Assembly (NCBI GenBank): GCA_018711135.1
Contig: DVIS01000046.1
Coordinates: forward strand, 1 to 59,895
Origin: Candidatus Onthousia faecavium
GTDB taxonomy: Bacteria > Bacillota_I > Bacilli_A > RF39 > UBA660
DNA: 59,895 bases
Direction: 5' to 3'
Of the stretch, positions 7,621 to 30,864 are shown piece after piece; within the stretch, counting starts at the first letter, position 1; every line of letters starts with the position of its first letter. Under the pieces are notes generated by a model that was given only the letters and a program-made list of their open reading frames with translations, had not been told where the DNA came from and made no database searches. The translations under genes were made by a program, and so were the position numbers.

Positions 7621-9477
7621 CTAGGAAGCAAGGGCAAGTGTGAAAGGATTTTGCAGAGTTCCATCTCCCCCGGTGATGATGACGTTTTGTTTTAGATTTA
7701 GGGATGGTTTAATGCTGATAGCAACTTGTGTGGTGTCAGTAGGGATTGAACTACCGCTGTTACGAATACGATGCACATAATTTGTATTATTATATGGTGT
7801 TAAAGTCCAATACATAGTTGTTAAATTTGTGGGAATATTTTCTCCTTTTTCACTATATCTTGTAAATTGTCCGGCCATTAACTCACCTAGTCTTAATAAT
7901 CCAACTTTTGTATAGATAATACTTGTTGTAAAAATATTGTCTGTGGTATTGGTATATTTTGCTAATTTATAGGAATCACTATCTCCTACAACACCTAAAT
8001 ACCATGTACTACTTTCTTCTATCATGGCTATATCTTCGGATTTTAAATACCCATTTTCTATATTTAAATAATCTCTATTCAAAAACGTCCCTATTGTATT
8101 GTTATTAGTAAATATTGAATTATTTCCAAAAGTTGTAGTTATAAAATTACCTGACTTTTTTAATGGCTCAGCACTTGTTATTTTTGTGCCCATCACATTT
8201 TCATGACTTACTATTCGATATAAATTATTTTCTCCTGTACCAAACCTTATGTATTCTCCACTATATCTTGTGTTTAATAATGTACCTAAGAGATTAGTGT
8301 CATTATCTCCATCTATACGATAAGGATTATTTTCTGTTCCATTACCTTTTACTATTTTAATACTTGGTTTTAGATTTATTGTCGGACGAATTCCTGCTAC
8401 CTCTGTTGGCAAATCATAACTTATACTACCATCACTAAAAACAACACATACTTGAGTATCATTATATGGCGTGATACTCCACCAACCAAGTCCATTATTT
8501 AAATAACCGGTGGTATAATCTGTACCACTATAACTCATAGTATGTTCATAAGAACTTAATAGACCTACTGGATCAGTCACCAATGTAGTTTTAGCTAATT
8601 TAGTAGTTTCTGCAGTCTCTGTCGCATTCCAGACACTATTCATCTTTATAAACTTTTCTGGCTCTCTTAAATTACCAAGAAAACCGTCAACACTAATATC
8701 ATTTAACCATTCTTCCATATAACTACCTTCAAATGCTGTATTACCACTTTCATTATAAGAAATTGCACTTATATTCCATTGTGTTACTAATTTAACACTA
8801 TTATCACTTGTGTCTATTGATACTGCTCTCCATAATTTACCACTATACCAAATATAGTTATTTGGATCTTCTCCTGTTACAAAGTATTGTTCATTATCTT
8901 CTACATTTATATTATTTTTAGTATCAAAAAGAATTGTATCAGAAACAGTATTAGTTATTTCTCTAAATAAATGTCCATTACTTGGTAAACTAAGATTATT
9001 ATAATCTAGGCCTACACTTACTCCTAAGTTTATTATTTGTTCTTCTTCTGTATGGTTTGCTAGTACTATTTGATAAGTTTGACTAGAACTTATGGTATTA
9101 ACTTTTTCTAGATTTACTCCAGTGTCTATTGGTGGTGTATTATAGTTATCTATGATTTTATAACCAGCAAAGACTCCACTTGGAAGATTATTTAAATAAT
9201 AGAAATTAAATCTAGCCATTCTCTCATTTGGATTACTTAAAGTAATCGTAAAAGTTTTTTCTTCTTTTGGTCCAACAACCAATTTATCTGTACTAACTCC
9301 ATCTATTTTCAAAACATAACTTAATGTCCCCGTAACAATGCTTATAGCATTACTTTTTTCTTTGCTAACAGTAAACATGGCATAAGAAAAGTAACTTGTT
9401 AGTAAAAGAAAAGCAATTAATATTACACATATCATATATATTTTTGATATCTTAGTATTTAATAATATTTGTTTCAT
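7621..9477 (-). CDS. Exported/surface protein: TasA/SipW-type N-terminal module plus two DUF6273-like (C-type-lectin-like) domains
   Basis: Hydrophobic N-terminus ending 'SYFSYAMF'. Two repeats 'WW/YW..TPY...G/SI(R/K)P..NL...G.GT..NP(Y/F)'. N-terminal ~170 aa closely resemble the 29095..30864 protein. Domain names are from recall. Confidence 0.65.
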   Translation of the reverse strand: MKQILLNTKISKIYMICVILIAFLLLTSYFSYAMFTVSKEKSNAISIVTGTLSYVLKIDGVSTDKLVVGPKEEKTFTITLSNPNERMARFNFYYLNNLPSGVFAGYKIIDNYNTPPIDTGVNLEKVNTISSSQTYQIVLANHTEEEQIINLGVSVGLDYNNLSLPSNGHLFREITNTVSDTILFDTKNNINVEDNEQYFVTGEDPNNYIWYSGKLWRAVSIDTSDNSVKLVTQWNISAISYNESGNTAFEGSYMEEWLNDISVDGFLGNLREPEKFIKMNSVWNATETAETTKLAKTTLVTDPVGLLSSYEHTMSYSGTDYTTGYLNNGLGWWSITPYNDTQVCVVFSDGSISYDLPTEVAGIRPTINLKPSIKIVKGNGTENNPYRIDGDNDTNLLGTLLNTRYSGEYIRFGTGENNLYRIVSHENVMGTKITSAEPLKKSGNFITTTFGNNSIFTNNNTIGTFLNRDYLNIENGYLKSEDIAMIEESSTWYLGVVGDSDSYKLAKYTNTTDNIFTTSIIYTKVGLLRLGELMAGQFTRYSEKGENIPTNLTTMYWTLTPYNNTNYVHRIRNSGSSIPTDTTQVAISIKPSLNLKQNVIITGGDGTLQNPFTLALAS

Positions 9478-9501
9478 CTTATACTCCTTTCTTAAATCAC
9501 A

Positions 9502-9535
9502 AATAAGAACAGGATAACTCTATCCTGTTCTTATT
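9502..9535 (-). terminator. Leader hairpin (putative attenuator) upstream of the 618-aa gene
   Basis: Perfect 15-bp inverted repeat AATAAGAACAGGATA (9502-9516) / TATCCTGTTCTTATT (9521-9535) with a 4-nt loop, about 25 nt before the main ATG. Confidence 0.75.
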
Positions 9536-9618
9536 CTATGATTAAAGAAAGTACTTAAGCTTCTAAAGCCCCCCCCCCAGGTAACTTGTTGTAAACGTGC
9601 GCTAGTGCTCATTTTCAT
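9520..9618 (-). CDS. Putative poly-G leader peptide, in-frame state (G10)
   Basis: MKMSTSARLQQVTWGGGFRSLSTFFNHRIRTG*; RBS AAGAAGG; C10 on + at 9569-9578; the stop TAG (9520-9522) lies at the hairpin loop. Confidence 0.65.
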   Translation of the reverse strand: MKMSTSARLQQVTWGGGFRSLSTFFNHRIRTG

Positions 9619-9683
9619 ACCTTCTTTCTATCTTTAACTTAACACCAGTTTAACATAATTTAAAGATATCAACAAGAACTTTC

Positions 9684-10229: not shown

Positions 10230-10236
10230 CTAGATG

Positions 10237-10265: not shown

Positions 10266-10273
10266 TTTATTTG

Positions 10274-11211: not shown

Positions 11212-12168
11212 CTAATTTATACTTAGCAATTTCCCATGAACAACAATTCTTTCAGTATTATCTAAAGAACAGGTAGAAAGAGTTATTATTTTATCAGTAC
11301 TATATAATAATTGTTGATAATCTTTGTTACTACGGCTTTTCAAAGTGTTTAAAAATTCTAAGTACCGTTCTTCATTTAGAAAGTCAGTTTGTAAATAAGT
11401 AATTTCTGGTTCTATTTGGTAAGAAGAAAAGATTTGGTAAGTGTATAAATTTGCTGGTGTTTTTAGATATATTTTTAAGTTTGTTTCTTTACTTGTTAAG
11501 ATGTTATCTAAAGTACCAAACATGGTTTCATTTAAAATATGATGCCCATAAATAATAAGGTTATTAGTATTAGATAGATTATTAAAATCATTACGATAAT
11601 CAGCATAGATCCAACCTTTAGTGTTGTAACTTTTATCGATACTGTGATCTAAGTAATATGAGTTATCAGTAGTCTTAACAACGGGATAGTTTATATTTGT
11701 TCCTTCAACTCTAATGAAAGCGACAACATCAGGATTAGTAGCTTGTAATTCCGTAAAATTCAAATTATAAAAATCATATGATAAGTATTTACGATAATTA
11801 TCACTTATAACTACATTATTATCAGAATTAGTATTACTTTGTAAAGAACTATCATCACTTTCTGGTATTTTGTTTTCATTAATATTAATAGAGGTAAAAG
11901 GAATATCTTCTTTATAAGTAACAGATACTGGTAATATAAATCTTAAAATAGTAACAAATGTAACAACATAAAGAGTTACTATCATAATTAATTCCTGATT
12001 AGCTAATCTTTTATCTAATTTCTTTTTTAGAGTAACTCTTTTCTTAAAAAGGCCAGGAATTAATAAACTAAGGCCAAGATAAAAATAATAACATAACGAC
12101 CAAATAACTTTATTTAAACATGTTACCACTTGTTCAACAGTATTTCCTATTACTTTAAGTACCTTCAT
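11212..12168 (-). CDS. srtB: Class B sortase
   Basis: 'INYPVV...N.YYL.H', 'IIYGHH....MFG.L', catalytic 'TLSTC...ERIVVHGKL'; N-terminal TM segments. Confidence 0.9.
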   Translation of the reverse strand: MKVLKVIGNTVEQVVTCLNKVIWSLCYYFYLGLSLLIPGLFKKRVTLKKKLDKRLANQELIMIVTLYVVTFVTILRFILPVSVTYKEDIPFTSININENKIPESDDSSLQSNTNSDNNVVISDNYRKYLSYDFYNLNFTELQATNPDVVAFIRVEGTNINYPVVKTTDNSYYLDHSIDKSYNTKGWIYADYRNDFNNLSNTNNLIIYGHHILNETMFGTLDNILTSKETNLKIYLKTPANLYTYQIFSSYQIEPEITYLQTDFLNEERYLEFLNTLKSRSNKDYQQLLYSTDKIITLSTCSLDNTERIVVHGKLLSIN

Positions 12169-13630: not shown

Positions 13631-13680
13631 ATAACCACCTATATTATTATAGATGGAAAAGAAAAATAAGTGCTAAGCAC

Positions 13681-14226
13681 TTATCTAACCTGTTCTCCTA
13701 TAATTCGTATTTTACCTTTCCAAACTTGCCCTCCAAAGTCACCATCTATTTCTGTAGTTGGCCAAACTTTTAATACATAATTGTTACTTTCACCACTGTT
13801 TAAGGTACCACTATCAAGAATTCTCGAACCATCTGTTCCTAAGCTAGTAAGGTAATAAGGAGAACCAGTAACATCATTTTTATTAAAACTATATTTTAAA
13901 TATTTATCATCTAATTTAACATCAGGACTTGCTATTGCCACATTATCTAAATAAATAGTATATTCAGCATCTGCAGTTCCCGTATTTTCTAAAGTAAATG
14001 AATATCCATCTAATTCCAGTCCTTGACGATCAGTTAAAGGATATGTATCACTTAAATTAATCATTTCCCCCTCTGTTAAAGTTAATTTTAACGTTCCTAA
14101 AGTCACAATATTATCTTTTTTACCCAATCCTGCATAACTAAAAATAGCATAAGATAAAACAATAACTAATACTATAAGAACAATTAGTAAACCTAATAAA
14201 AATATTTTGTTTTTTCTATCTTTCAT
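13681..14226 (-). CDS. Secreted TasA/camelysin-like (SipW-type signal) single-module protein
   Basis: 'LSYAIFS...GTLKLTL...YSFTLENTG..DAEYTIYL...L..GES..Y.L.VW'; same architecture as the N-terminal module of the two ~600-aa proteins. SigA promoter TTGAAA-N17-TATACT upstream. Confidence 0.6.
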   Translation of the reverse strand: MKDRKNKIFLLGLLIVLIVLVIVLSYAIFSYAGLGKKDNIVTLGTLKLTLTEGEMINLSDTYPLTDRQGLELDGYSFTLENTGTADAEYTIYLDNVAIASPDVKLDDKYLKYSFNKNDVTGSPYYLTSLGTDGSRILDSGTLNSGESNNYVLKVWPTTEIDGDFGGQVWKGKIRIIGEQVR

Positions 14227-14284
14227 TTAAATCACCTATACTAGTTAAAGTATAGCATTATTAGAAAACAGTTTCAACTATTTT

Positions 14285-15226
14285 CTAAAGCAAATCGCTT
14301 CTTTTAACATTAGAAATACTTTCCCCATTCACTTTAAAATTAATAACATTAATATCATAATTAGCAAAAACAGAATAACTAAGAGTATATAAAACCTCTT
14401 CTTTTAACTTACTATCACCATCAAAAAGATAATCATTAAAATCTAAAATAAAAACTCCATCTACTATTTCTTTATCAGTTAAAACTAAATTTTCATTTAA
14501 AATACTTTGTAGATTATCTTCATAAATATAACTTGTTGTCAATTCTTCAACAATAATATCAATTTTCTCTTTATCATCATTTATATATTTAGTTACAGGA
14601 ACATAGAATAAATCATTATCAATATTTTCATTATAATAGATAACTACTTTCGTAATGTCATTTAAACTAGTTAGACAGTATTCTTTATTAATTCCTATAT
14701 CTCGAGAAAGAGGTAAAGTCAGTTTTTTATCAGTATTAGGATAAGAATCTAAAGGTGTTCCATTAACAGATATATAAACTTTATTAATATCATCTAACTC
14801 AGTAAGAGAATAAACAATGCTTTCAATTAATTTACTAGATAACTCTTCTTTAACCGTTAAAAATTCTTTTGAAAAATCTAAATAGACTGTATCTTCTTCT
14901 ACTCTAACCTCATTTAATTTGGTATTTAATGGAATAAGTGCTTGTAATTTATCACTAAATTTACTATTACTATTAAGAGTTAAATTATTAATCACACTTT
15001 TTATATCAAGAATAAGGTCATCGTTATCTAGTAATATTTTGGTTTTAACTAAGTGCTTATTGCTATCTAAAAGATAAATAGAAGAATTAGCAAGATTAGT
15101 TATATATTCAAATTCAAAATTAGTATTAATAGTTTTTTCAGTTGTAGGAATTAAATAAATAGTCATGATAATAAAAAGACTGGCTGTTGCTACTAATATT
15201 TTTCGTAAAGCTTTTGTTTTTAGCAA
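14285..15226 (-). CDS. gerM: GerMN-domain spore germination protein
   Basis: Two GerMN repeats ('LIP..TKL....VEEDTVYLDFSKEF...ESIVYSLTE' and 'FYVPVT'); SigE-like -10 CATATAGT at 15244-15251. Confidence 0.8.
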   Translation of the reverse strand: MLKTKALRKILVATASLFIIMTIYLIPTTEKTINTNFEFEYITNLANSSIYLLDSNKHLVKTKILLDNDDLILDIKSVINNLTLNSNSKFSDKLQALIPLNTKLNEVRVEEDTVYLDFSKEFLTVKEELSSKLIESIVYSLTELDDINKVYISVNGTPLDSYPNTDKKLTLPLSRDIGINKEYCLTSLNDITKVVIYYNENIDNDLFYVPVTKYINDDKEKIDIIVEELTTSYIYEDNLQSILNENLVLTDKEIVDGVFILDFNDYLFDGDSKLKEEVLYTLSYSVFANYDINVINFKVNGESISNVKRSDLL

Positions 15227-15273
15227 TTGACACCACCCATTTAACTATATGAAAAAAAGTACTAAATTAGTAC

Positions 15274-15477
15274 TTATAAAGTTATTTCTTTTAGTTTTAA
15301 TAATTCAATAACGGCATTAGCACGACCTTTGACACCCAGTTTTTGCATGACATTAGAAATATGATTTCTAACTGTTTTTTCACTTATTTCAAGTTTTAAA
15401 GCTATTTCTTTAGTTGACAATCCCGTCACTAAAAGTGAGAAGACTTCTCTTTCTCTATCCGTCAAGATACCACTCAT
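15274..15477 (-). CDS. gerE: Spore coat regulator GerE (stand-alone LuxR HTH)
   Basis: 'LTDREREVFSLLV...TKEIA..L.ISEKTVRNHISNVMQKLGVKGR..AV.ELL' is very close to B. subtilis GerE as recalled. Confidence 0.85.
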   Translation of the reverse strand: MSGILTDREREVFSLLVTGLSTKEIALKLEISEKTVRNHISNVMQKLGVKGRANAVIELLKLKEITL

Positions 15478-15551
15478 AATAATCCCCTTTCAAATACAAG
15501 CATTTCACTAGTAGTTTATGAAAGAAGATTTATTTGTTGTAGATAAAAGAA

Positions 15552-16088
15552 CTAATTACCTTCAAATTTTACGGTTATTGTTTTTTTTGTATCAAATTCT
15601 CCTTGAACAGTCCTCATGATATTATTAGCTAAAGTAACATCATGATCTTTCTTAGCTGCAACAATAGTAATAGTTTCATTATCTATTTTGACAAAACTAT
15701 TAATTTTATAATTATCTTTAATGAGTTTCTCAAGTTTCTCTTCTTCTCCTTCAACAACAGCTAAATTTTTTAATTGTTCATAAGCATTATTTTTTTCTTC
15801 AACCGTTGCTTCTTCTTTTGTCATAGTAGCTTTTAATTCTGTTTTTTCTTTATCCCGTTCTTCATCTAAATTAACTCTTAAGGCCGTTAAACTATCTGCT
15901 TCACTAACATCACTGATAGTATCTGCCTCATCACTATCAGTATTTTCTTCAGTCGTTTTGTTTCCCTCTTCTAAAGTTGTACTATTACTAGCAATTAAAA
16001 GGTCATTAGGCATAGTTATATAATAAACACTAAGAACTAAGATAAGACTGAAAAGAGTTAAAAACCATAAGTTTTGTTTATTAATCAT
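15552..16088 (-). CDS. spoIIIAH: Stage III sporulation protein AH
   Basis: 'MINKQNLWFLTLFSLILVLSVYYIT' N-terminus and a YscJ-like C-terminus. Confidence 0.88.
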   Translation of the reverse strand: MINKQNLWFLTLFSLILVLSVYYITMPNDLLIASNSTTLEEGNKTTEENTDSDEADTISDVSEADSLTALRVNLDEERDKEKTELKATMTKEEATVEEKNNAYEQLKNLAVVEGEEEKLEKLIKDNYKINSFVKIDNETITIVAAKKDHDVTLANNIMRTVQGEFDTKKTITVKFEGN

Positions 16089-16112
16089 TTGTATCCTCCC
16101 TTTTACTAATAC

Positions 16113-16141
16113 ACTTTATGAGGAAGGATATTTATTTATGA
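16113..16141 (-). promoter_or_regulatory. SigE-type promoter of spoIIIAH
   Basis: TCATAAA-N14-CATAAAGT, compared with the SigE consensus KMATAWT-N14-CATAMANT. Confidence 0.65.
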
Positions 16142-17353
16142 CTTTAATTTAGAGGCAGCATTTAAAACAGCAAGTTTACCGTAACAATAAGTAAGTGACC
16201 CCTGTTGATAAGCAATAAATGGTGGTCTAATTGGACCATCACATGAAAGTTCAATGGATGAACCTTGAGTAAATGAACCACTGGCCATAATAACTTTATC
16301 AAGGTAGCCTGGCATAGGACTAGGTATTGGCGTAAAAGCTGAATCAATCGGTGATGAATTTTGAATAGCCCCCACATATTTAACTAAATCACTTTCATTA
16401 CCAAAAATAATATTTTGAACAATATCAGCACGTTCTTCATTATATTTAGGTTCTACTTGATAACCTAAATCTTCTAATAAAGCAGCAGTAAATATCGCTG
16501 TTTTTAAAGCTGAAGCAACAACAGATGGAGCAAGAAATAAACCTTGTAATATTTCTTTATTAGCATTAAGACTAGGTCCAACCTCTTTACCCTCACCAGG
16601 TAAAGTAAGCCGTTCTGCACAAAGATTAATTAAATCTTTTCGCCCAACTATATAAGCACCATTAGAAGCAATACCACCACCTAAGTTTTTGATTAAGGAA
16701 CCAACGGCAATATCTGCTCCTACCTCAATTGGCTCTTTAGTATTAACAAATTCACAATAACAGTTATCAACCATAATAATAGTCAAAGGTGCAATTTCCT
16801 TAATAAATTTGATAACTTTCGCAACTTTCTCAATAGTTAAACTTTTTCTTGTTGAATAACCTTTACTACGTTGAATTTCAATAACTTTAATTTTTTTAGT
16901 TGTTAAAAGCACTTTAATTTTTTCATAATCAAAGTCATTATCAATTAAGTCTATTTGTTCATAAGAAATATGATAACTTGCTAAAGAAGAAGGATTAGGA
17001 ATAATACCAATTACCTCATCTAAAGTATCATAAGGTTTACCCGTAATACTAAGTAAAGTATCATTAGGTCTTAAAAGGGCAAATAAAGCTACTGTTAAAG
17101 CATGACTACCAGAAATAAATTGATTTCTAACAAGAGCATCTTCAGCTTTAAAGATATCAGCATAAATCCTTTCTATTTTATCTCTACCATTATCGTTATA
17201 ACCATAACCAGTAGTAGCATGAAAATCTTGTTCTGACACCTCATTTTTTATAAAAGCACTTAAAACTTTAGTACTTATTTCTTTTTCTAAATCATCTATT
17301 TTCTCAAGTTGATCTTTTATTTTTTGATCAATTTTTGTTTCTAATTCTATCAT
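16136..17353 (-). CDS. Methionine gamma-lyase family / aluminium-resistance (YnbB-like) PLP enzyme
   Basis: 'TGYGYND.GRD..E..YA..F.AE.ALVR.Q..SG.HA', 'GSLIKNLGGG', 'MASGSF.QG.SIELS.DGP'. Confidence 0.9.
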   Translation of the reverse strand: MIELETKIDQKIKDQLEKIDDLEKEISTKVLSAFIKNEVSEQDFHATTGYGYNDNGRDKIERIYADIFKAEDALVRNQFISGSHALTVALFALLRPNDTLLSITGKPYDTLDEVIGIIPNPSSLASYHISYEQIDLIDNDFDYEKIKVLLTTKKIKVIEIQRSKGYSTRKSLTIEKVAKVIKFIKEIAPLTIIMVDNCYCEFVNTKEPIEVGADIAVGSLIKNLGGGIASNGAYIVGRKDLINLCAERLTLPGEGKEVGPSLNANKEILQGLFLAPSVVASALKTAIFTAALLEDLGYQVEPKYNEERADIVQNIIFGNESDLVKYVGAIQNSSPIDSAFTPIPSPMPGYLDKVIMASGSFTQGSSIELSCDGPIRPPFIAYQQGSLTYCYGKLAVLNAASKLKS

Positions 17354-18078
17354 CTTTTTATCCCTCCATCTATTCTAATCACACTATCATTTATATAACT
17401 TGCTTCCCTACTTGCTAAAAAGTAAATAAGGTTAGAAATCTCAACTGGTTCTGCAAAACGATTTAAGAGAATTTTGGCAGTTTCTTTAGCTTTAAAATCA
17501 GGACTCAAACCTTTATTCATTTCAGTATTGACCCAACCAGGTGCAATAGCATTAACTCTTAGATAAGGAGCAAAATAATTAGCTAGATTATGGGTTAAAG
17601 AAATAAGTCCTGCTTTAGCTGCATCATAGTCAATACTCTCTGGATAAGTAGTATCAAGACCATTAGTTGAAGATATATTAATGATGCTACCTTCCTTTCT
17701 ATCAAACATTTTAAGGCCTACTTTTCTTGCTAATAAATAAGGACCAACTAAATCAGTATCCAAAGTCATCAAAAAATCATGCTTCGTCTTTAAAGTAAAA
17801 TCTTGATCATTAGCAATTGCAGCATTATTAACTAAAACATCAAGAAAACCTTCTTTGTATATTTCTTCAACTAAATTATTGATATCTTCTTCCTTTGCTA
17901 AATCTAATTTATAGAAAGTTACATGAGTATTATATTTTGTTTCTAACTCTTTTTTTAGGTTAATAGCATTTTCTTGATCTTGATAATACGTGAAAATAAC
18001 ATCATATCCTAAACTAGCAAATTTAATAACGGTACTTTTACCAATTCCTTTAGTTCCTCCTGTAATTAAAACACGCAT
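17350..18078 (-). CDS. SDR-family oxidoreductase (FabG-like)
   Basis: 'TGGTKGIG', 'LVNNAA', 'YDAAKAG', 'RVNAIAPG'. Confidence 0.9.
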   Translation of the reverse strand: MRVLITGGTKGIGKSTVIKFASLGYDVIFTYYQDQENAINLKKELETKYNTHVTFYKLDLAKEEDINNLVEEIYKEGFLDVLVNNAAIANDQDFTLKTKHDFLMTLDTDLVGPYLLARKVGLKMFDRKEGSIINISSTNGLDTTYPESIDYDAAKAGLISLTHNLANYFAPYLRVNAIAPGWVNTEMNKGLSPDFKAKETAKILLNRFAEPVEISNLIYFLASREASYINDSVIRIDGGIKR

Positions 18079-18165
18079 TTTAACACTCCTTTTTTAAATT
18101 TCGTACTAATATTACCACAACACTTTAGTATTGACAAGAAAAAAAGTACTCTTAGTAAAGAATAC

Positions 18166-18906
18166 TTATGCCCCTATTATACCAAATAAGTATAAAAAGG
18201 AAATTATTATAGAAACTATTGTAATAACAATCGCTATTTTAGCTTTCCCACCCTTTTTAGTATCTAATCCTTGATAAGCTAAAATAAGGATAATTATATT
18301 AATAAGAAAACCAAAAGCATAACCGAAAATAGATACAACTAACCCTATTAAGGAAAACCAAAAACTAAATTCTGCCATCGTCTCTTGCTTTTTAGAAACT
18401 TGATTACTAAAGGTTTGAGAAAAATCTTGAGCATTATTACTTGTATTCATATTATAATAATTAGGAGTATATTGTGATGTACTAGAATTTAGCATCTTAT
18501 TTATATCAGTTTGATTAACACTACTATAACCAGTACTATTATTATTAAGACTGTTATTAGGTGTAATATTATCATGTAACTTACTTACCTCTTCAAATAA
18601 TTTTGCCAGTGATTTTTGATATTCCATTGCAATAATATCAAGTCCATTATGTTCAATTTGAGCATCTCCAAAAAGACTATGGAACCAAGCAGTTACTGTA
18701 AGTGTTTGTCCAGAAATATTATAACTAAAGTATTTAAAACCTTTAAGATTATTCCCTGACTCAAAATAACTTTCTCCATTCTTAGTTTCATAAATAAAAT
18801 TATTAGCATTTAAATAACTTTGTACTAATCTATCAACAAGACTAGCTTCACAATTAAATTGACAGCTATAAGAGCTTCTTCCTTTTTTCATATTAAATCC
18901 TTTCAC
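18166..18906 (-). CDS. Membrane protein with Asn/Ser-rich linker and C-terminal TM hairpin
   Basis: Soluble N-terminal domain, low-complexity middle, hydrophobic C-terminus. Confidence 0.7.
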   Translation of the reverse strand: MKGFNMKKGRSSYSCQFNCEASLVDRLVQSYLNANNFIYETKNGESYFESGNNLKGFKYFSYNISGQTLTVTAWFHSLFGDAQIEHNGLDIIAMEYQKSLAKLFEEVSKLHDNITPNNSLNNNSTGYSSVNQTDINKMLNSSTSQYTPNYYNMNTSNNAQDFSQTFSNQVSKKQETMAEFSFWFSLIGLVVSIFGYAFGFLINIIILILAYQGLDTKKGGKAKIAIVITIVSIIISFLYLFGIIGA

Positions 18907-19277
18907 TTATTATTTTTTTGACTTTCCTCATCTATTTGCACTTTCATTTCTTGTGCTTTCTGCCAACAATTCTTTATATCAAATTTATCTTCAGGAAGCC
19001 ATGAAATAACTAAATTTACAATTGATGGTAAAAAGAAAATAATTAGAGCAGCAGCTATTTTTATGATTATAGTTTTTAATATTCCTTTTTTATCAGGATT
19101 TGTAACCGCTCCAATAATAGTTAAAGCTAAACTTATAATTAAAATAATAGGCACAACTATACAAATGATAGTAAAGGCCGTTTGAAAAAGTGACAGTGTA
19201 TTTGCTAAAGCATAATCATCACAAGCATCAGCAACCGCTAAAATATACATATTTTTCACCTCACTTATTTTTTTCAC
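18903..19277 (-). CDS. Small two-TM protein (pilin/VirB2-like topology)
   Basis: Two TM helices joined by a short charged loop and flanking cysteines; family assignment tentative. Confidence 0.5.
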   Translation of the reverse strand: MKKISEVKNMYILAVADACDDYALANTLSLFQTAFTIICIVVPIILIISLALTIIGAVTNPDKKGILKTIIIKIAAALIIFFLPSIVNLVISWLPEDKFDIKNCWQKAQEMKVQIDEESQKNNK

Positions 19278-19866
19278 TAACAGCTATACCATCTCCAACC
19301 TCATAGATAGTAGTTGTATAATCTTCATTATTTTTTAAAAAAGTTATATAATCTTTAATCTTTCTTACAATCCCTCTTAAATTACGACTCGTTATTGTTT
19401 TTTCATCCTTTTTTACTAAGCCATGAAAATACATATTATCGGTAATGATATAACCTTCATCATTTAAATTACGTTCAAATAATTCAAAAAATTTAATATT
19501 TTGAGCCTTAGCAGCATCAATAAAAACTAAATCGACTTTATCATCAATTCTAACATTTAAAGCATCATTAAATATTAAAGTAATTCTATCTTCCAAATTG
19601 AATTTTTTTATATTTTTAAGAGCTTCTAAGTATCTTTTTTCATCCCGTTCTATACTTATTACTTTTAAATTAGGACTACATAAACACATCATAATAGCAG
19701 AATACCCAATCGCAGTTCCAATTTCTAAGACTGTTTTTATTTGATGTTTAATAATAAATGTTGTTAAAAAGTCAATACCTTCATTCTGCATAATAGGTAT
19801 TTTATTTAAGGATGCATATTCTCTTATTTCTTTAATCAGCATATAATTACTACTTACCATATCCAA
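19261..19866 (-). CDS. O-methyltransferase (YrrM/TrmR-like)
   Basis: 'VLEIGTAIGYSA', 'DLVFIDAAKAQ', 'ITDN'; conserved synteny with mltG. Confidence 0.88.
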   Translation of the reverse strand: MDMVSSNYMLIKEIREYASLNKIPIMQNEGIDFLTTFIIKHQIKTVLEIGTAIGYSAIMMCLCSPNLKVISIERDEKRYLEALKNIKKFNLEDRITLIFNDALNVRIDDKVDLVFIDAAKAQNIKFFELFERNLNDEGYIITDNMYFHGLVKKDEKTITSRNLRGIVRKIKDYITFLKNNEDYTTTIYEVGDGIAVSEKNK

Positions 19867-20918
19867 TCACCATTTTCTTTTAACTCTTGCACTTTCGCTT
19901 CATGTTCAGCCATATTCTTTGTAAAGTAAACTTTTCTATTTTTGTCAGCAACAAAGTATAGATAATCACTTTTCGCAGGCTCTAAGGCCGCAATAATAGC
20001 AGAAATAGAGGGATTACAGATAGGACCAACAGGAAGACGTCCAGCCATTTCGCTACTTCTTGTATTATATGGATTGTAGGTATTAAACATTTCTGAGGTT
20101 AAATCTCGATCCATCTCTTCATTAAAGGCATAGTAAGTAGTAACATCACTACCTAGATTCATCCCTAAAGCAAGACGATTATTAAAAACACTAACAATTA
20201 ATTTTCGATCCTCGTCTGTTACACCTTCAAGTTCAGCCATAGAAGCTAAGGTTATAATATCATGAATATTATTACTTTCTAAAATCTCTTTATATGAAGC
20301 TAATTTCTTCCCCTCTTCATCAAGTAATTTTCTAACAATAGTATCAACAGTTAAATTACTCTTTTGAAACTGATATGTATCAGGAGCTAAATAACCTTCT
20401 AAAGAATAATAGATATCCGGATTTAAAATATCTTCAGTTAAAAACCAATAATCATTAATAAGAGTTGTTAAATAAGCCTCATCATTAACTGTTGTTAAAA
20501 AATCACTAGCAGAAATATTAGTATTCTCTTCAATCATAGTAGCATAGTCTTTAATAGTTTCTCCTTCTTTAAAAGTAAGATTAATAACATCACTATTATC
20601 AATAGTACCACCAACTAAAATATTTACTATTTCATCTAAACTCATATTCTTAGAAAGATTATAAGTTGCAGCTTTTAAATTGCCAACATTATTAAGTTTT
20701 AGATATACTTTAAAGAAAAAATCACTTCTAATTAAATTTTTATCTTTTAAAGTCTTAGCTATATTAGAGGTACTCATCCCACTAGGAATAACAACCTCAA
20801 TTAAAGCATCACTACTGTTATCAACAGGCATTACATTATATTGATAATATCCAAACAACCCAATTAAAATTAAACCTAAAAATCCAATAATCAGGGACAA
20901 TAAACGCATCTTTTTCAT
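19854..20918 (-). CDS. mltG: Endolytic transglycosylase MltG
   Basis: 'LEGYLAPDTY', 'TLASMAELEG', 'VFNNRL..GM.L.SD.T', 'YNPYNT...LP.GPICNPS'. Confidence 0.95.
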   Translation of the reverse strand: MKKMRLLSLIIGFLGLILIGLFGYYQYNVMPVDNSSDALIEVVIPSGMSTSNIAKTLKDKNLIRSDFFFKVYLKLNNVGNLKAATYNLSKNMSLDEIVNILVGGTIDNSDVINLTFKEGETIKDYATMIEENTNISASDFLTTVNDEAYLTTLINDYWFLTEDILNPDIYYSLEGYLAPDTYQFQKSNLTVDTIVRKLLDEEGKKLASYKEILESNNIHDIITLASMAELEGVTDEDRKLIVSVFNNRLALGMNLGSDVTTYYAFNEEMDRDLTSEMFNTYNPYNTRSSEMAGRLPVGPICNPSISAIIAALEPAKSDYLYFVADKNRKVYFTKNMAEHEAKVQELKENGDWIW

Positions 20919-20935
20919 ACTGCCACCCCTACCCT

Positions 20936-21229
20936 TTATTCTTCATTACTTGTTTCTGTTTGTTTTCTAACCTCTTCTTGGATAGTTTCCAAAATTTTAT
21001 CAATTATTTGCCATTCTCTTTCTGTTTCAACAGGATCTAGTTTATTATTATCACTTTCAGGATAATAAACACTAGCATAAACTTGAACATTACCAGCATC
21101 ATCAAAGGTATTATCAGTATACACGACATAACTTTTATTTGTTTCTTCATTATCAAAGGTAAATAAAACATCATAAGTTGTTTCTTGTCCATATTCATCT
21201 TTTAATTTAAATTTATCTTTTAATTCCAT
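20936..21229 (-). CDS. DUF1292 (YrzB-like) protein
   Basis: Acidic; 'L.DE.G.E..Y.VLFTFD..E..KSY' and 'ETE.EW'; synteny. Confidence 0.85.
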   Translation of the reverse strand: MELKDKFKLKDEYGQETTYDVLFTFDNEETNKSYVVYTDNTFDDAGNVQVYASVYYPESDNNKLDPVETEREWQIIDKILETIQEEVRKQTETSNEE

Positions 21230-21646
21230 TTACTTTCTCCTTTTATCTAAAAATGATTGTAATATAATTGTAGCAGCTATTTTATCTATCACTTGTTTTC
21301 TTTTTTTCCTACTTGTATTAGCACTAATTAACACATCTTCAGCACTCTTAGTTGTTAAACGTTCATCTTCTAAATATATAGGAAGATCAACTTTAGATTC
21401 TAATATTTTTTTAAAATCAAGAGTTGCTAAAGCTCTAGCTCCTAAAGTATTGTCCATATTCTTAGGCAATCCTAAAACTAAGGCTTCAACGTTTTGATCT
21501 TTAATTATAGCAAATAACTCATCAAGACATGACAAAGGATTATTATCATGATGTAGCACTTTTAAAGAACTAGCAATTAAACCAGTTTTATCACTAACAG
21601 CAAGCCCAATCGTCTTTGTACCTAAATCCAAACCCAAATAACGCAT
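21230..21646 (-). CDS. ruvX: YqgF/RuvX-family nuclease
   Basis: 'LGLDLGTKTIGLAVSD', 'VLGLPKNM', 'DERLTT', 'DKIAA..ILQ'. Confidence 0.95.
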   Translation of the reverse strand: MRYLGLDLGTKTIGLAVSDKTGLIASSLKVLHHDNNPLSCLDELFAIIKDQNVEALVLGLPKNMDNTLGARALATLDFKKILESKVDLPIYLEDERLTTKSAEDVLISANTSRKKRKQVIDKIAATIILQSFLDKRRK

Positions 21647-21891
21647 TATTTATTTAACATACTAGTAAGAAGGACCTCAATAATCTTACTTCTATCAATA
21701 GTTTTAATTTTGCTTCTAGCATCTTGATAACTGGAAATATAACCTAAATCGCCACTAATTAAATAGCCAACTATTTGATCAATAGGATTATAACCACGTT
21801 CTTTTAAAGAATTATAAACCTCAAGTAATGTTTTATGAACTTTAGCTTGATCATTGCTTACTAGTCTAAATAACCTTGTCTTATCATCCAT
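21646..21891 (-). CDS. IreB/DUF965 family regulatory phosphoprotein
   Basis: 'VYNSLKERGYNPIDQIVGYLISGDLGYI'. Confidence 0.9.
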   Translation of the reverse strand: MDDKTRLFRLVSNDQAKVHKTLLEVYNSLKERGYNPIDQIVGYLISGDLGYISSYQDARSKIKTIDRSKIIEVLLTSMLNK

Positions 21892-21978
21892 ATTATCACC
21901 TCACTACAATTACTAACATAAGTTTAGCATTTTTTTTTAATAAGTTCAAGTAGCAGAAAGCAATAACATTAAGGACTT

Positions 21979-23118
21979 TTAAAACAAAACTCTTTCTGAT
22001 TTATATTGTTTAATTATAACCACTAAAACTAAACTAATAATCACAATTGTTGATAAAACCATTAATAAAATATTAATGATATCTATATTTCCAATAACAA
22101 TATCTTGGAATACAAGCGTAAAATTCAAAAATGGTATTAACGATAAAAGTGGTGAAGAACTAACTCCTGCCATAAAAGCAATCATACCAGGAAAAAAAGA
22201 AATAAATGTTAACGGAGTTAAAGCACTTTGAGCTTCTTTAAAAGTTTTAGATTTACTAGCAATCGCAATACATAAACCACTTATTAATAAAGAATAAGCA
22301 ATAATTACTAAAATTGAAAAAATTAGGCTACTAGAAGATAACATTAACCTAGTATCTTTATATATTTCAAAACTACTATTAGCATAAACTAAAGAAATAA
22401 GCATTAAAATTAAACTAATAATCCCCGTAATAATTGATGATAAGGAAACACTTAGAAATTTACCAATAATTATATCTTTACTCTTAATAGGAAAAGTAAG
22501 TAAAGTTTCAAGAGTGCCACGCTCTTTTTCCCCTGCAGTAGTATCAGTTGCAGGATAAGTTGCTGATATTGTAATAGCCATAATTATAAATAAGAAACCA
22601 TAGTTTACAATGTAATTACCATAAAAATTTTCTGTTTCTTTTAAATTTTTATTAACTGTTATAATATCAGTAACAGCACTAGGATCTATATTATTAGTAA
22701 CTAAATAATTAGTTTGCATCGCTTCTTTATAAGTAGCAAAATAAGTATCCATTAAACTTGTAGCATAAGTACTATTCTCATTATCTTCACCATTAATTGT
22801 ATAAGTAGTGTCTTCTTTAGTGATATATAAATCAATTTCTCCATTAGCATACATACTCTCTAACTCTTCAGTAGTTCCACTGGTAATTTCAATATCTAAG
22901 TTACTAGCAATATCTTGTTCCATAGTACTTAACTCATAATTAAAACCGATTTTATTATAATCAGTTATTGGTTTATTAATTTCTGATTCAAATAAAGCTG
23001 ACATTCCTATCACTAAAGCAGGTATCAAGATTGGAATAATTAACATCATAGCAAGAGACTTCTTATCACGAAACATCTCTCTTAATTCTTTCTTTAAAAT
23101 ATTACCTAAATTACTCAT
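21979..23118 (-). CDS. ABC-2 type permease (NatB-like Na+ efflux)
   Basis: 'ILKKELREMFRDKKS', 'AGEKERGTLETLLT.P'; multiple TM segments. Confidence 0.85.
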   Translation of the reverse strand: MSNLGNILKKELREMFRDKKSLAMMLIIPILIPALVIGMSALFESEINKPITDYNKIGFNYELSTMEQDIASNLDIEITSGTTEELESMYANGEIDLYITKEDTTYTINGEDNENSTYATSLMDTYFATYKEAMQTNYLVTNNIDPSAVTDIITVNKNLKETENFYGNYIVNYGFLFIIMAITISATYPATDTTAGEKERGTLETLLTFPIKSKDIIIGKFLSVSLSSIITGIISLILMLISLVYANSSFEIYKDTRLMLSSSSLIFSILVIIAYSLLISGLCIAIASKSKTFKEAQSALTPLTFISFFPGMIAFMAGVSSSPLLSLIPFLNFTLVFQDIVIGNIDIINILLMVLSTIVIISLVLVVIIKQYKSERVLF

Positions 23119-23866
23119 TAGTTCTACCTCCTATTAAAGTAAAGAAAGCATCTCTTAGATTAGTTGTTTTAGTAGATTTCTTAATATCAATAGGAGTACC
23201 TTCTTTAATAACTTTACCTTTATTAATCATAATAACATAATCACAGATATTTTCTGCTTCCTCCATATAATGAGTAGAATATAAAATTATCTTACCACGT
23301 TTCTTTTCTTCTTTAATAAAGTCTAAAATAATCTGACTAGAAATAATATCAAGGCCACTAGTCGCTTCATCTAAAATATAGTATTTAGGATCATGAACTA
23401 AGCATCTTGCAATATTAACTCTTTGGGTTTGACCTGTAGATAAGTTTTCAATCCTATTATAAAGAAAGCTATCCATGTTTAATTTTTTAGATATTTCTTT
23501 TATCCTAGTTTCTAATTTACTACCATCTACTCCATAAATATTGCCACACATTTTTAATAGTTCATATGGTGATAATGTATTATAAAGTTTGGTATTACCA
23601 GATAAATAGGCAATATTTTTCTTGATTTCGATCTCATTATGAAGGTAATCTAACTTTCCAAAAGAAATTGTCCCACTAGTAGGAACAAGAATACCTGCAA
23701 TCATTCTAAGCAAAGTTGTTTTCCCGGCTCCATTTGGTCCTAATATGCCAATGATTTCTCCATCTTTTGCTTTAAAACTAATACCATCATCAGCATAGAA
23801 CTCTTCTTTTTTATGTTTATCATTATATTTGACAAACTTTTTCTTTAAGTCTTTAATTTCTAGCAT
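23111..23866 (-). CDS. ABC transporter ATP-binding protein (NatA-like)
   Basis: Walker A GPNGAGKTT, signature 'LSTGQ', 'ILDEATSGLD', 'STHYMEEAE'. Confidence 0.9.
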   Translation of the reverse strand: MLEIKDLKKKFVKYNDKHKKEEFYADDGISFKAKDGEIIGILGPNGAGKTTLLRMIAGILVPTSGTISFGKLDYLHNEIEIKKNIAYLSGNTKLYNTLSPYELLKMCGNIYGVDGSKLETRIKEISKKLNMDSFLYNRIENLSTGQTQRVNIARCLVHDPKYYILDEATSGLDIISSQIILDFIKEEKKRGKIILYSTHYMEEAENICDYVIMINKGKVIKEGTPIDIKKSTKTTNLRDAFFTLIGGRTNE

Positions 23867-28376: not shown

Positions 28377-28987
28377 TCTTTCTCCTCCTCTTTAAGACAT
28401 CCATACTTTAATATTTCTAGTTGTGCATAATAGTCATTAAGTATATCTTGATTAAGTATATCTTCTTTGAGTAATTTAAATAGTGCTATCATTAAAAGAT
28501 GCATATTAATCGCAAAAATAAGTTCAAGATGTCTTTTTGCAGTATCAGTTAATTTTTCTAAATTGATGTTAGGAATTAGTTTCTTTAAGAGTCTTTTATC
28601 TCGAAAACCAAAGGTTCTTTTTGACTCTTCCATAATAGTGATATTTTCAAGTGACTTTTTAAAGAAATTGATATTGGTATTTTTAAAAGCTTTGTAACAG
28701 TTACTGATAGTATCATAAAACATTTTAAATATATCACCATCATTTTTAATTAAAGCCTCCATCATGGTCTCTTCAAGAATCTTTCCATGTCTTTCCAATA
28801 AATAAAAGTACAAGTCTTTTTTATCTTCAAAATACATATAAAAGCTTCCTCTAGAAATACCAGCTTCCTTAATAATTCTATTAATTGAAGCTTCATTAAA
28901 GTCATGACTAGAAAACTCATTAAAACTAGCATTAAGTAGTTTATCTTTCTTTTCTTTACTAAGTCTTAAAAAGGTATCACTAGGCAT
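28370..28987 (-). CDS. TetR/AcrR-family transcriptional regulator
   Basis: 'LLNASFNEFS...ASINRIIKEAGISRGSFYMYFEDKKDLY'. Confidence 0.93.
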   Translation of the reverse strand: MPSDTFLRLSKEKKDKLLNASFNEFSSHDFNEASINRIIKEAGISRGSFYMYFEDKKDLYFYLLERHGKILEETMMEALIKNDGDIFKMFYDTISNCYKAFKNTNINFFKKSLENITIMEESKRTFGFRDKRLLKKLIPNINLEKLTDTAKRHLELIFAINMHLLMIALFKLLKEDILNQDILNDYYAQLEILKYGCLKEEEKEC

Positions 28988-29015
28988 AAGTATCCCTCCT
29001 AACAGTCACTATAAC

Positions 29016-29044
29016 ATTATATGTGACAAGTTGTCATATGTCAA
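29016..29044 (-). promoter_or_regulatory. Consensus SigA promoter with a palindromic TetR operator in the spacer
   Basis: TTGACA-N17-TATAAT; palindrome TGACAA-N-TTGTCA at 29024-29036 inside the spacer. Confidence 0.85.
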
Positions 29045-29094
29045 CAAAAAATTACAAAAAAAGAATAGAACTGTTTTCTACTCTCCTATAATAA

Positions 29095-30864
29095 CTACTG
29101 TAAATTAACTAAAGTAACCCTAAATGTTAAACCATAAGCTGCTATTCCATTATCATCATAATTATCAAAATAAAATATTCCTCCCTGTATAGAACTAATA
29201 AATGCTCCTCCCCGTCCTTGCCAAGCATTATTTGCATCGACTAGTTCTTTTATATCATTATACCAACCCCAATTCTCTCCTAAACCATGAGAAATACAAG
29301 CATTACCACTGCATGAGGTTAGAACATCATCACTTGTATATTTATCATAATATTTAGATTCAGGCATTGTTTCAAAACCAGAGTTTTCCACTAAGCCATT
29401 ATAATTTGCCATTACAAGTTCAAAAGCTCCACCACTCATATCATATACTCCATATATCGTTCCTGTGGTACTTGCTCCTGTTCCATTAATATCTACATCA
29501 TAAGTATATTGACATCCATAATCAGCAGAAGTTCCCCCACTAGGTGCCCCCAAACTACATCCTGTTATTATCTCATCCGATTTATTTTGATACACCTCTT
29601 TATTAGCTCCAGTAAAATTAACATTACCTAACTTTCCATACTTAGATTGAGATAGGTATGTAATAATAGCCCATTCACTATTTTTTATCATATGCGTATC
29701 TACATCAGTACTAAAACCATACCGATTACCAGGATTATTCATTTTTAAACTAACTTGAAACATAGTAGCAACATTAATATTATCCCAACTAGATACATTA
29801 GGTTTAATCATAACATCTAAATTCATAGAGTCAATACCACTTTCTAAAGCTTCAATATTACTACTTGAAGATTCAAACTTACCAACCCAAATTCCTGATA
29901 ACTCTTTTCCATCAAAGGTAAAAGCATCTGGAGTATACCAATCATCAGCACCTATTCCTTCACTTACAAGATATTTGGCTGTTCCTTTATCTTTAACATT
30001 TGGTTCTATAAACTTTATATCTATTTCTCCTGGTAATTCTTGAGTTGGCATTGTTGTTAAAAAATTCCCTTGCTTTCCATAGTAATTAATACCATCTTCA
30101 CTTCCAATACTGTAACTATATCTTGGTATCCATACCCACATAGTTTCAATATCATCCATCGAAATTACAGTGCCAATATCTGCTTCTAAATATGTATCTC
30201 TAGTTGAACTGCTTACTGTTACTGCATTAGCCCATTCGCCTTTATCATAGTTATACCAGTTTGCCTCATCAGTCTTTACCCAATTATTATTCTCATAAAT
30301 AACAGGAATCATATTATTATCTAATTCTGGAGTATTAACTGTAAAAATCTCTTCAAATAAATTTCCGTTACTTGGTAAAGCTAAATCATTATAGTCTAAT
30401 CCGACCTCAACTCCTAAATTGATAACAATTTGCTCATTATTATTATTAATGACCTTTAATTGATAAATTTGACTTGCACCAATTCCTTCTTTTTCAAGAT
30501 TTACTCCAGTTTCTTCTGGAGGAATATTAAAGTCTTTAATCTTTAAATACCCCATTTCAATATTTTCAAATATTGGAGTTATATAATAGAAATTAAATCT
30601 TGCTAAACGATTATTAGGATTACTTAAAGTAATCGTAAAAGTTTTTTCTTCATTTGGACCAACAACTAGTTCATCAGTACTAACTCCATCTACTTTCAAA
30701 TCATAACTTAATGTCCCTGTCACAATACTTATCGCATTATTCTTTTCTTTAGTTACAGTAAACATCGCATAAGAAAAGTAACTTGTTAATAGTAATAAGG
30801 TTATTAAAATTACACTTATTATATATATTTTTGATACTTTAGTATTTAATAATAGTCTTTTCAT
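29095..30864 (-). CDS. Exported/surface protein: shared TasA/SipW-type N-terminal module plus FGE-sulfatase-like (C-type lectin fold) C-terminal region
   Basis: N-terminus paralogous to 7621..9477. 'MWVWIPRY', 'GIWVGKFE', 'HM.KNSEW....YL.QS.YG', 'GT.YGVYDMSGG..E.V', 'RGG...G.F...G...FRV'. Confidence 0.65.
   Translation of the reverse strand: MKRLLLNTKVSKIYIISVILITLLLLTSYFSYAMFTVTKEKNNAISIVTGTLSYDLKVDGVSTDELVVGPNEEKTFTITLSNPNNRLARFNFYYITPIFENIEMGYLKIKDFNIPPEETGVNLEKEGIGASQIYQLKVINNNNEQIVINLGVEVGLDYNDLALPSNGNLFEEIFTVNTPELDNNMIPVIYENNNWVKTDEANWYNYDKGEWANAVTVSSSTRDTYLEADIGTVISMDDIETMWVWIPRYSYSIGSEDGINYYGKQGNFLTTMPTQELPGEIDIKFIEPNVKDKGTAKYLVSEGIGADDWYTPDAFTFDGKELSGIWVGKFESSSSNIEALESGIDSMNLDVMIKPNVSSWDNINVATMFQVSLKMNNPGNRYGFSTDVDTHMIKNSEWAIITYLSQSKYGKLGNVNFTGANKEVYQNKSDEIITGCSLGAPSGGTSADYGCQYTYDVDINGTGASTTGTIYGVYDMSGGAFELVMANYNGLVENSGFETMPESKYYDKYTSDDVLTSCSGNACISHGLGENWGWYNDIKELVDANNAWQGRGGAFISSIQGGIFYFDNYDDNGIAAYGLTFRVTLVNLQ

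Follow-up and report, generated by a model that had tools for sequence, protein, structure and literature searches.

The window, by which we mean the whole stretch of DNA analysed here, is a 59,895-nucleotide (nt) contig of Candidatus Onthousia faecavium (GenBank assembly GCA_018711135.1, contig DVIS01000046.1). Its G+C content is about 27%, the majority of its genes lie on the minus strand, and the sequencing runs that contain its sequence are mainly chicken-gut metagenomes. Two large open reading frames (ORFs) on the minus strand, one encoding a 618-amino-acid (aa) protein (7621-9477) and the other a 589-aa protein (29095-30864), share a leader of about 150 nt and an N-terminal part. The first 174 residues of the two proteins are 69% identical (E 2e-65), with a 35-nt run of identical DNA in the shared part (coding strand, GAAGAAAAAACTTTTACGATTACTTTAAGTAATCC); beyond residue 174 we detected no significant similarity. 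This bears out an earlier note on the same DNA, made from the letters alone, which had described about 170 shared N-terminal residues with long identical DNA runs followed by unrelated C termini. A hidden Markov model (HMM) search of all window ORFs for a third family member returned only these two genes, and a 208-aa ORF (51762-52388) matches the family profile through its membrane helix only.

In the 618-aa protein the shared part, hereafter the module, consists in order of a charged N terminus, a hydrophobic helix, the motif SYAMFT..E..N..TGTL and an immunoglobulin (Ig)-like beta-sandwich; the remainder of each large protein is a head of its own kind. Within the 618-aa head, Pfam DUF6273 (PF19789) matched residues 238-370 (E 6e-7; 29.9 bits against a gathering cutoff of 23.5), and the second half of the head repeats the first in diverged form (E 4e-9), confirming the two DUF6273-like repeats that had been read from the sequence. 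According to PMC10743442, DUF6273 in phage receptor-binding proteins is a binding domain with a C-type-lectin-like fold. The 589-aa head had been called FGE-sulfatase-like, a label that is unconfirmed because the head matched nothing in Pfam at E≤1, in NCBIfam at E≤0.01 or among PDB sequences at E≤1. Both C termini (...GDGTLQNPFTLALAS and ...GLTFRVTLVNLQ in translation) lack an LPXTG/NPQTN-type sorting signal, in keeping with the earlier remark that neither protein has a C-terminal wall anchor; the NP[FY] found near the C terminus belongs to the ending of the DUF6273 repeat.

Homologues of the module numbered 109 in a word-indexed search and 559 clusters in an exhaustive profile search, and the module was always N-terminal. 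Species-representative reference genomes contained 165 family loci; all of the metagenome-assembled genomes (MAGs) were labelled uncultured Bacilli, uncultured Tenericutes or Candidatus Onthousia, and one genome with family loci is a closed 1.5-Mb chromosome. Individual MAGs carry at least 8-9 family genes, some in tandem, and full-length members are mostly 590-630 aa long. Among the full-length genes of this clade with a scorable head, 55 of 65 have a DUF6273 head and 10 of 65 a head of the 589-aa type. Wider relatives fuse the module to Laminin_G_3 (LamG), BspA-type leucine-rich repeat (LRR; LRR_5) or ALK/LTK-type glycine-rich (ALK_LTK_GRD) heads; one relative (P0263) has a Laminin_G_3 insert within a 589-aa-type head, and two others (P0338 and P0308) match DUF6273 at 62-64 bits. 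Clustering of neighbouring genes at 81 loci revealed no conserved accessory genes: the genes that precede family members are varied and unrelated, with Mur-ligase/3D-domain, DUF87 ATPase and tRNA-synthetase contexts among them. The proteins thus form a lineage-specific multigene family in uncultured, small-genome gut Bacilli, probably located at the cell surface, and the shared module and differing heads support the modular architecture, with one N-terminal module and interchangeable lectin-like heads, that had been proposed.

Both large genes have the poly-G leaders ascribed to them, with tracts of ten and nine guanines (G10 and G9) inside leader upstream ORFs (uORFs; Table 1). The leader precedes about 60 of about 83 family genes in many species and is lacking from about 22. 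From 5' to 3' it comprises a Shine–Dalgarno (SD) sequence, the ATG of the uORF (M[KR]K.CLQYVTWGG...), the conserved CGTTTACAAnnnGTTACCT, the poly-G tract, a spacer that varies, the invariant TTACTTTCTTTCAT, a hairpin and its T-run, and finally the SD (GAAAGGAG) and ATG of the gene itself. Tract lengths range from 5 to 13 among paralogues, with a mode of 9-10; elsewhere in the window there is no run of eight or more G's, and 0.09 such runs would be expected by chance. No known RNA family was matched by Rfam anywhere in the window.

The leader RNA is predicted to fold into a single long stem, capped by the hairpin, with CUUUCUUU and the SD region base paired. The minimum free energy of this stem was -40.5 kcal/mol for the 618-aa leader (z -6.0), -34 kcal/mol for the 589-aa leader (z -4.0) and -30.9 kcal/mol for a third leader (z -3.6), and an RNAalifold consensus over 50 leaders selected the helix between this anti-SD segment and the SD. 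The hairpin arms covary (GAATAGA/TCTATTC versus GAACAGG/CCTGTTC) when the window is set against most other loci, and the hairpin of the 589-aa leader scored as terminator-like.

Table 1 Features of the window discussed in the text (anti-SD, segment complementary to the SD region)
Feature	Position	Strand	Description	Basis
N-terminal module, 618-aa protein	8956..9477	-	Residues 1-174	69% identity to 589-aa N terminus; family profile E 1.6e-83
Head, 618-aa protein	7621..8955	-	Two DUF6273-like (C-type-lectin-like) repeats	Pfam and self-comparison
N-terminal module, 589-aa protein	30346..30864	-	Residues 1-173	Paralogue comparison, profile match, AlphaFold model
Head, 589-aa protein	29095..30345	-	Unassigned domain, NWYNY..WANAVTV..MWVWIPRYSY.. 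..RGGAF	Second head class by head clustering
Leader uORF, 618-aa gene	9520..9618	-	MKMSTSARLQQVTWGGGFRSLSTFFNHRIRTG, then stop; G10 gives the long frame, with its TAG stop in the hairpin loop	SD GAAAGAAGG upstream
Poly-G tract, 618-aa uORF	9569..9578	-	G10	Sequence
Long leader stem, 618-aa gene (predicted)	9487..9551	-	Anti-SD CTTTCTTT (9544-9551) with SD region GAAAGGAG (9484-9491); terminator-like apex hairpin 9505-9532	
Leader uORF, 589-aa gene	30951..31055	-	G9 gives a short frame, with TAG 8 nt past the tract	
Poly-G tract, 589-aa uORF	30959..30967	-	G9	Sequence
Long leader stem, 589-aa gene (predicted)	30875..30939	-	Anti-SD 30932-30939; hairpin and T-run 30893-30920; SD 30871-30878	
181-aa protein	13681..14226	-	Membrane helix ending SYAIF, then eight-strand beta-sandwich	Homologues, AlphaFold
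Promoter-like site, 181-aa gene	14249..14277	-	TTGAAA-17-TATACT with upstream TG	Sequence
Signal peptidase I, bacterial type	3174..3680	-	Only one among the window ORFs scanned	Pfam Peptidase_S26, E 4.7e-47

Downstream of the tract, the leaders obey a strict frame rule. In 37 of 37 distinct spacers the same frame, the one that reads the anti-SD as T-F-F-H/N, is open for 46-69 nt up to a TAG inside the hairpin, and in 36 of 37 both remaining frames close before the anti-SD. Shuffled spacers gave this pattern with a probability of 0.10-0.21 each, and at least seven unrelated spacer architectures follow the rule. Tract length would therefore set how far a leader ribosome travels, because the frame decides whether it stops short of the stem or runs through the 5' arm. 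As in a leader attenuator, the leader ORF overlaps a stem arm in the sequence, and its conserved SD and ATG point to translation of the uORF.

These features suggest a cassette-like leader that would switch most paralogues stochastically. A ribosome loaded at the uORF's own SD would read through the poly-G tract, usually G9-G10, and slippage that adds or removes one G would reset the uORF frame. In two frames the ribosome would halt 2-29 nt past the tract, allowing the long stem to form and turning the gene OFF: the apex hairpin and T-run would act as a terminator, and the anti-SD CTTTCTTTC would base pair with the SD of the gene. In the third frame it would cross the anti-SD and enter the hairpin's 5' arm, opening the stem, preventing termination and freeing the SD, which would turn the gene ON; only this long frame would open the stem. 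In the sequenced window, the G10 tract puts the 618-aa gene in the ON-type frame, and the G9 tract puts the 589-aa gene in an OFF-type one. Of the assembled copies, about 1 in 10 has the long frame and most have a short one, which fits a repertoire with few paralogues ON at once.

Tract lengths vary between and within samples, as read from Logan contigs rather than raw reads and with matches limited to 97% identity over locus-specific flanks. At the 618-aa locus, G9 and G10 both occurred in sample X1 (G9 depth 19.9/39.9), and G9 only in X2. At the 589-aa locus, G10 was found beside G9 in X1, X2 and X4 (G10 depth 26.5, 18.4 and 4.6, respectively), and one family locus present in four assemblies had G10 in three and G9 in one. 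Leader depth in these metagenomes is about 30 times that of the flanking sequence, a sign of tens of copies. One low-depth contig from a chicken-gut metatranscriptome runs unbroken from leader through hairpin into the 618-aa ORF. The leaders thus have two hallmarks of a contingency locus, a slippable homopolymer in a conserved uORF whose frame sets the extent of that uORF, together with contig-level variation in tract length. Phase-variable expression through poly-G leaders, as the earlier note had envisaged, is supported by the conserved leader, the frame rule and this heterogeneity.

We considered whether the tract could act elsewhere than on the uORF frame, either on transcription initiation, through promoter spacing or the distance to an activator site, or on RNA structure, with the G-run pairing to the C/U-rich anti-SD as an anti-antisequestor. 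Poly-G or poly-C in promoter regions is a classical phase-variation device (Neisseria porA/opc, Bordetella fim, Moraxella uspA1), TTTACA lies immediately upstream of the tract, and G9-10 might bind CUUUCUUUC through G-C and G-U base pairs. However, no -10-like hexamer stands at a workable distance from TTTACA and a scan found no promoter in the 618-aa leader; for want of a usable -10 hexamer, a promoter-spacer role was rejected. Nor would a promoter model predict the conserved upstream SD and ATG. The one-open, two-closed pattern over 37 spacers of differing length would go unexplained, and a G:U-rich helix would barely depend on one G more or less. We regard this alternative as unlikely.

Several observations count against a frame-gated, anchored repertoire. 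Homopolymer error and cross-mapping between paralogues could inflate the contig-level tract variation, and the RNA contig could be contaminating DNA. The T-run of the 618-aa leader is interrupted, and the scan called no terminator there. Covariation in the anti-SD:SD helix is almost wholly one-sided, so that this pairing rests on conservation and predicted energy. Some leaders lack an SD-linked uORF start or have alternative ATGs in other frames, and the roughly 22 family genes without a poly-G leader fall outside the scheme. A simple membrane anchor does not explain the strong conservation of SYAMFT..TGNL. Finally, the sequence data establish the family, its architecture, the conserved leader, the frame rule, the predicted stem and the variable tract, whereas a causal step from uORF frame to expression, like surface location, anchoring and ligand binding, is inferred. 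With these points weighed, we still find it probable that the family supplies a repertoire of lectin-headed surface proteins, each anchored at its N terminus and carried on an Ig-like stalk, whose phase-variable expression is gated by the poly-G uORF leader.

Upstream of position 3001 in their loci, several of the leaderless genes (L009, L023, L025-L027, L046, L052 and others) have a strong promoter-like sequence, for example TGTTATAAT. Because about 22 genes lack the poly-G leader and several of them have such ordinary promoter-like sequences, part of the family may be expressed constitutively.

AlphaFold, given 65 aligned sequences, returned the 589-aa module at a predicted local distance difference test (pLDDT) score of 86, with a helix at 12-49 and eight strands at 55-156. 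Foldseek comparison with the PDB yielded generic Ig-like sandwiches only (PapD-like domains, FimG, MSP; best E 0.016), and the viral library gave only uncharacterised sandwiches and nothing informative. The most conserved segment of the family, YFSYAMFTVSKEKSNAISIVTGNL, lies at the outer end of the helix, whose hydrophobic stretch spans about 18-20 residues and which AlphaFold extends through the conserved motif. No class III signal of type IV pilins (G/F or M...E5) precedes the helix in the 618-aa or 589-aa protein. In the arrangement that we favour, the N-terminal hydrophobic helix, which ends at SYA/MFT..E..N..TGxL (slash, possible cleavage point), would carry the protein into or through the membrane, the Ig-like beta-sandwich of about 105 residues would serve as a conserved stalk or spacer, and the ligand-binding head would be exchangeable between paralogues. 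Because the proteins have no other anchoring device, we infer that the helix is retained as an N-terminal anchor, although an ordinary signal peptidase may cleave after SYA. Surface exposure, judged from the sequence, and ligand binding are likewise probable.

If cleavage does occur, the family could instead comprise conventional secreted proteins that signal peptidase I trims after SYA and that leave the cell, for example as soluble lectins or enzymes, with the N-terminal domain as a conserved pro- or carrier domain. The signal peptidase I rule accommodates S at -3 and A at -1, as found here, the window encodes a peptidase of this bacterial type, and the C-terminal anchor is absent. Against release, stochastic switching of tens of paralogues typifies cell-attached variable surface proteins rather than secreted enzymes; C-type-lectin-like, LRR and LamG heads are binding rather than catalytic modules; and the hydrophobic stretch, at the length given above, is modelled as a continuing helix. 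Secretion and release strike us as quite unlikely, and we favour membrane anchoring.

The third protein of interest is the product of the 181-aa gene, for which 203 homologues were found; those listed, 120 in number, are well conserved (63-99% identity) and uniform in length (180-216 aa). As the earlier note had it, the gene has a consensus-like promoter (Table 1) and no poly-G tract. Its other claim, that the protein is a similar module standing alone, fared less evenly. In its favour, the AlphaFold models of module and 181-aa protein both consist of a helix and eight strands, and the two profiles are each other's best non-self matches among window ORFs, albeit weak ones (E 0.002-0.004). On the other hand, BLASTP gave E 1.7, and the hhalign match (55% probability, E 1.2e-4) covers 53 columns that correspond to the membrane helix, SYAxF and the first strand only. 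The 181-aa model has a pLDDT of 67, a moderate value that weakens the fold test, and its Foldseek matches were C-CPE, Pgp3, CUB jelly rolls and CBM-like sandwiches.

Several further observations concern this protein. When its family profile (alignment A3) was compared with PDB sequences, three of the four weak matches were 6w8x, an archaeal type IV pilin, and 6nav and 8tib, which we take to be archaeal pilins too (E 1.1-2.8, not significant); these alignments run through the N-terminal helix and echo the helix-plus-sandwich model. In five MAGs the 181-aa gene lies directly 5' of the leader of a family gene (L073 (2841-2870), L018, L036, L039 and L072), with 15 nt between its stop codon and the uORF start codon in L073. 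This adjacency is not specific, because family genes also follow many unrelated genes. One homologue (P0172) has a called C terminus, ...LQFVTWGGAL, that agrees with the peptide motif of the uORF. In the window, by contrast, a terminator-like hairpin (13664-13686) and then a rhodanese gene come after the 181-aa gene.

In the earlier note the module was taken for a TasA/CalY-type subunit bearing a SipW-type signal end, the 181-aa protein for a stalk-only major subunit that forms a fibre by donor-strand exchange, and the large proteins for its phase-variable tip adhesins. There are real grounds for the comparison: SYA/MFT..E..N..TGxL and SYA/IF..N..LGTLxL parallel TWA/AFND..TFASGTLDL of TasA, in register, and the post-helix sequence ISIVTGNLTYKL alternates in a strand-like pattern. 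Aligned with a TasA-family profile of 26 sequences by hhalign, the 181-aa family stayed in register over 76 columns, from the signal-peptide end through F.L.N.G[ST], at a weak 23% probability (E 9e-4). The mutual profile matches of module and 181-aa protein, with their hhalign E value, and the five-MAG gene order with its 15-nt junction also speak for a fibre.

Direct comparison with TasA did not sustain it. At thresholds of E≤0.1 for Pfam and E≤1 for NCBIfam, and of E≤10 for the N-terminal parts of the 589-aa and 181-aa proteins, neither Pfam Peptidase_M73 (PF12389), which all genuine TasA relatives carry, nor NCBIfam NF046066 matched the 618-aa, 589-aa or 181-aa protein. TIGR04088, TIGR04089 and TIGR04090 likewise gave nothing at E≤10 for the 589-aa and 181-aa N termini and two distant family members, whereas the N terminus of TasA, as a positive control, scored 41 bits on TIGR04088 against a cutoff of 19. 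The Foldseek PDB library contains TasA (8aur and 5of1), and neither structure was in the top 50 matches for the module or the 181-aa model; hhalign gave the module a 0.1% probability against the TasA-family profile, and AlphaFold renders the motif as a continuation of the helix. No SipW-type peptidase is encoded in the window, where the only S26 peptidase is of bacterial type (TIGR02227, 168 bits; archaeal/SipW-type TIGR02228, 23.5 bits, under its cutoff of 51.85), and no S26 gene recurs beside family genes at 81 loci. Those loci are equally devoid of conserved accessory genes, and because family genes follow many unrelated housekeeping genes, proximity to the 181-aa gene is just one of numerous arrangements. 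For the module, HMM searches thus give no TasA-family match and structure comparison only generic Ig-like matches; since the TasA-like fold on which the earlier note had staked its reading is lacking, the TasA part fails. We reject TasA/SipW membership for the module; for the 181-aa protein the case is weak, and a distant TasA-like origin is possible. The fibre is not supported, and we judge it rather improbable that the proteins form one; the SYAxF...GTL motif is unfit as a basis for annotating them as TasA-like.

Other family members show how these genes can be broken. P0002, a 178-aa product on a 14.5-kb contig, is identical to the 618-aa protein through about residue 171 and then ends ...LCNRRRSK, which is no simple frameshift of the window sequence and points to a rearrangement, in another sample, where the module meets the head. 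Several genes (L001-L004, L063 and L069) break off at ...VSTIL followed by a stop. In L001 (6770-11205) the break is the edge of a 4.4-kb segment with mutually inverted ends, each of which bears a helix-turn-helix gene and encodes a 75-aa membrane protein. TTTCTACAATACTCTAGG forms the outermost repeat, and an IS110-family transposase gene lies just beyond. The segment could be an invertible or mobile element that truncated the family gene. Four homologues (P0020, P0012, P0019 and P0024) end ...NYIWYSGKL where other members carry W; at L005 (6655-6665) TAG replaces TGG and the frame then runs into a 390-aa DUF6273 ORF, indicating either a shared nonsense mutation or a pseudogene. An alternative genetic code, considered for these homologues, was rejected, since the change is a TGG-to-TAG nonsense change after which the ORF goes on and the long ORFs of the window fit code 11. 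We also rejected shufflon or cassette exchange between the 618-aa and 589-aa genes: the two are direct repeats, sporulation and other housekeeping genes occupy the 20 kb that separates them, and the vicinity lacks a recombinase.

Elsewhere in the window, a CotE gene was identified at 43796-44332 (E 2e-45) and, by eye, look-alikes of spoIIIA, gerM and spoIIIAH at 14285-23866. On the strength of CotE and this sporulation-like neighbourhood, the lineage would be a spore-former; several related MAGs carry the label 'Tenericutes' despite these signs. A full-length IS1634-family transposase gene (48367-50151, plus strand; 343 bits) lies on the strand opposite most genes. Two apparent IS605/TnpB-type fragments were noted by eye on the minus strand, an N-terminal one (MEAYKVYKFRLYPTGNQKLL..., 31395-31460) in the 880-bp gap between a Mur-ligase gene and the 589-aa gene, and a zinc-finger C-terminal one (59239-59526) at the window's end; related genomes have a 225-aa gene in the equivalent gap. 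A sortase-B-like gene with a long N-terminal extension (11212-12168, minus strand) scored 146 bits against an NCBIfam cutoff of 153.75, and the window shows no evident substrate bearing a corresponding sorting signal. No tRNAs were found in the window.

The bacteria that carry this family are common uncultured members of the chicken gut, with relatives in other guts. Their genomes are very small, yet apparently devote tens of genes to one lectin-headed surface family, which points to a central role in their lifestyle for attachment to host glycans or partner cells. If the leader works as inferred, it would join slipped-strand phase variation and leader-peptide attenuation in one compact, portable switch that leaves the structural gene intact in every state and could be placed behind any transcribed gene. 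Graded states would also be possible, since the distance between stop codon and stem differs between the two short frames. Such a device would be of interest for phase variation, for RNA regulation and as a stochastic switch in synthetic biology. We found no precedent for a uORF-borne homopolymer attenuator in the literature searched, coverage of which was partial. That poly-G in a dedicated leader uORF heritably switches the frame that controls a stem with both terminator and SD-sequestering roles, and that this portable uORF-attenuator cassette, gating tens of lectin-headed paralogues in a 1.5-Mb genome, is a phase-variation mechanism not described so far, is a proposal for which we hold belief and doubt in equal measure.

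Comparison with known systems places these genes between several categories. With the TasA/TapA/CalY fibres of Bacillus (Peptidase_M73, TIGR04088) the window proteins share a signal helix that ends small-x-A then x-F, a G-T/N-L strand about 15 residues on, and then an F-x-L-x-N-x-G strand and a beta-sandwich body, and TapA has a TasA-like N-terminal part able to bear extra C-terminal sequence. Unlike TasA, they have no HMM-level or fold-level match to that family; the sandwich of the module is about half the size of TasA's; and the family has neither a sipW gene in the window nor an operon, and instead has tens of paralogues with large lectin-like heads and poly-G leaders.

Among switches, simple sequence repeat (SSR) contingency loci, such as the poly-G genes of Campylobacter and Neisseria and Mycoplasma Vlp/Vsa, resemble the present family in their hypermutable homopolymer, A+T-rich genome and many surface paralogues, with most of them OFF and a few ON, as would hold here too. 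In known SSR loci the tract is inside the structural gene or a promoter spacer, whereas here it sits in a separate leader uORF whose frame would be read through a terminator-like stem that hides the SD. In leader-peptide attenuators (pyrBI, trp, erm/cat), a short leader ORF likewise overlaps the arm of a terminator or SD-sequestering stem, and ribosome position decides whether the stem forms; their input is a physiological signal (tRNA charging, uridine triphosphate or antibiotic), whereas here it would be a heritable, reversible frameshift mutation. In Clostridioides difficile cwpV, formation of an intrinsic terminator in the 5' leader governs phase variation of a surface protein, as proposed here, but the switch is a site-specific DNA inversion by RecV, with neither homopolymer nor uORF. 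In Neisseria meningitidis siaD, slippage in poly-C leads to a premature translation stop and lowers downstream transcription, a similar chain of events; there, however, the tract is within the structural gene, polarity is Rho-dependent and no dedicated leader carries an intrinsic-terminator-like stem. For the heads, the closest likeness is to phage tentaclins and the target proteins of diversity-generating retroelements, which also display a variable DUF6273 C-type-lectin-like binding head on Ig-like spacers (PMC10743442). Those are phage tail proteins diversified by retroelement mutagenesis, whereas the proteins described here are chromosomally encoded, have a membrane helix and would be varied by the choice of paralogue and by ON/OFF switching.

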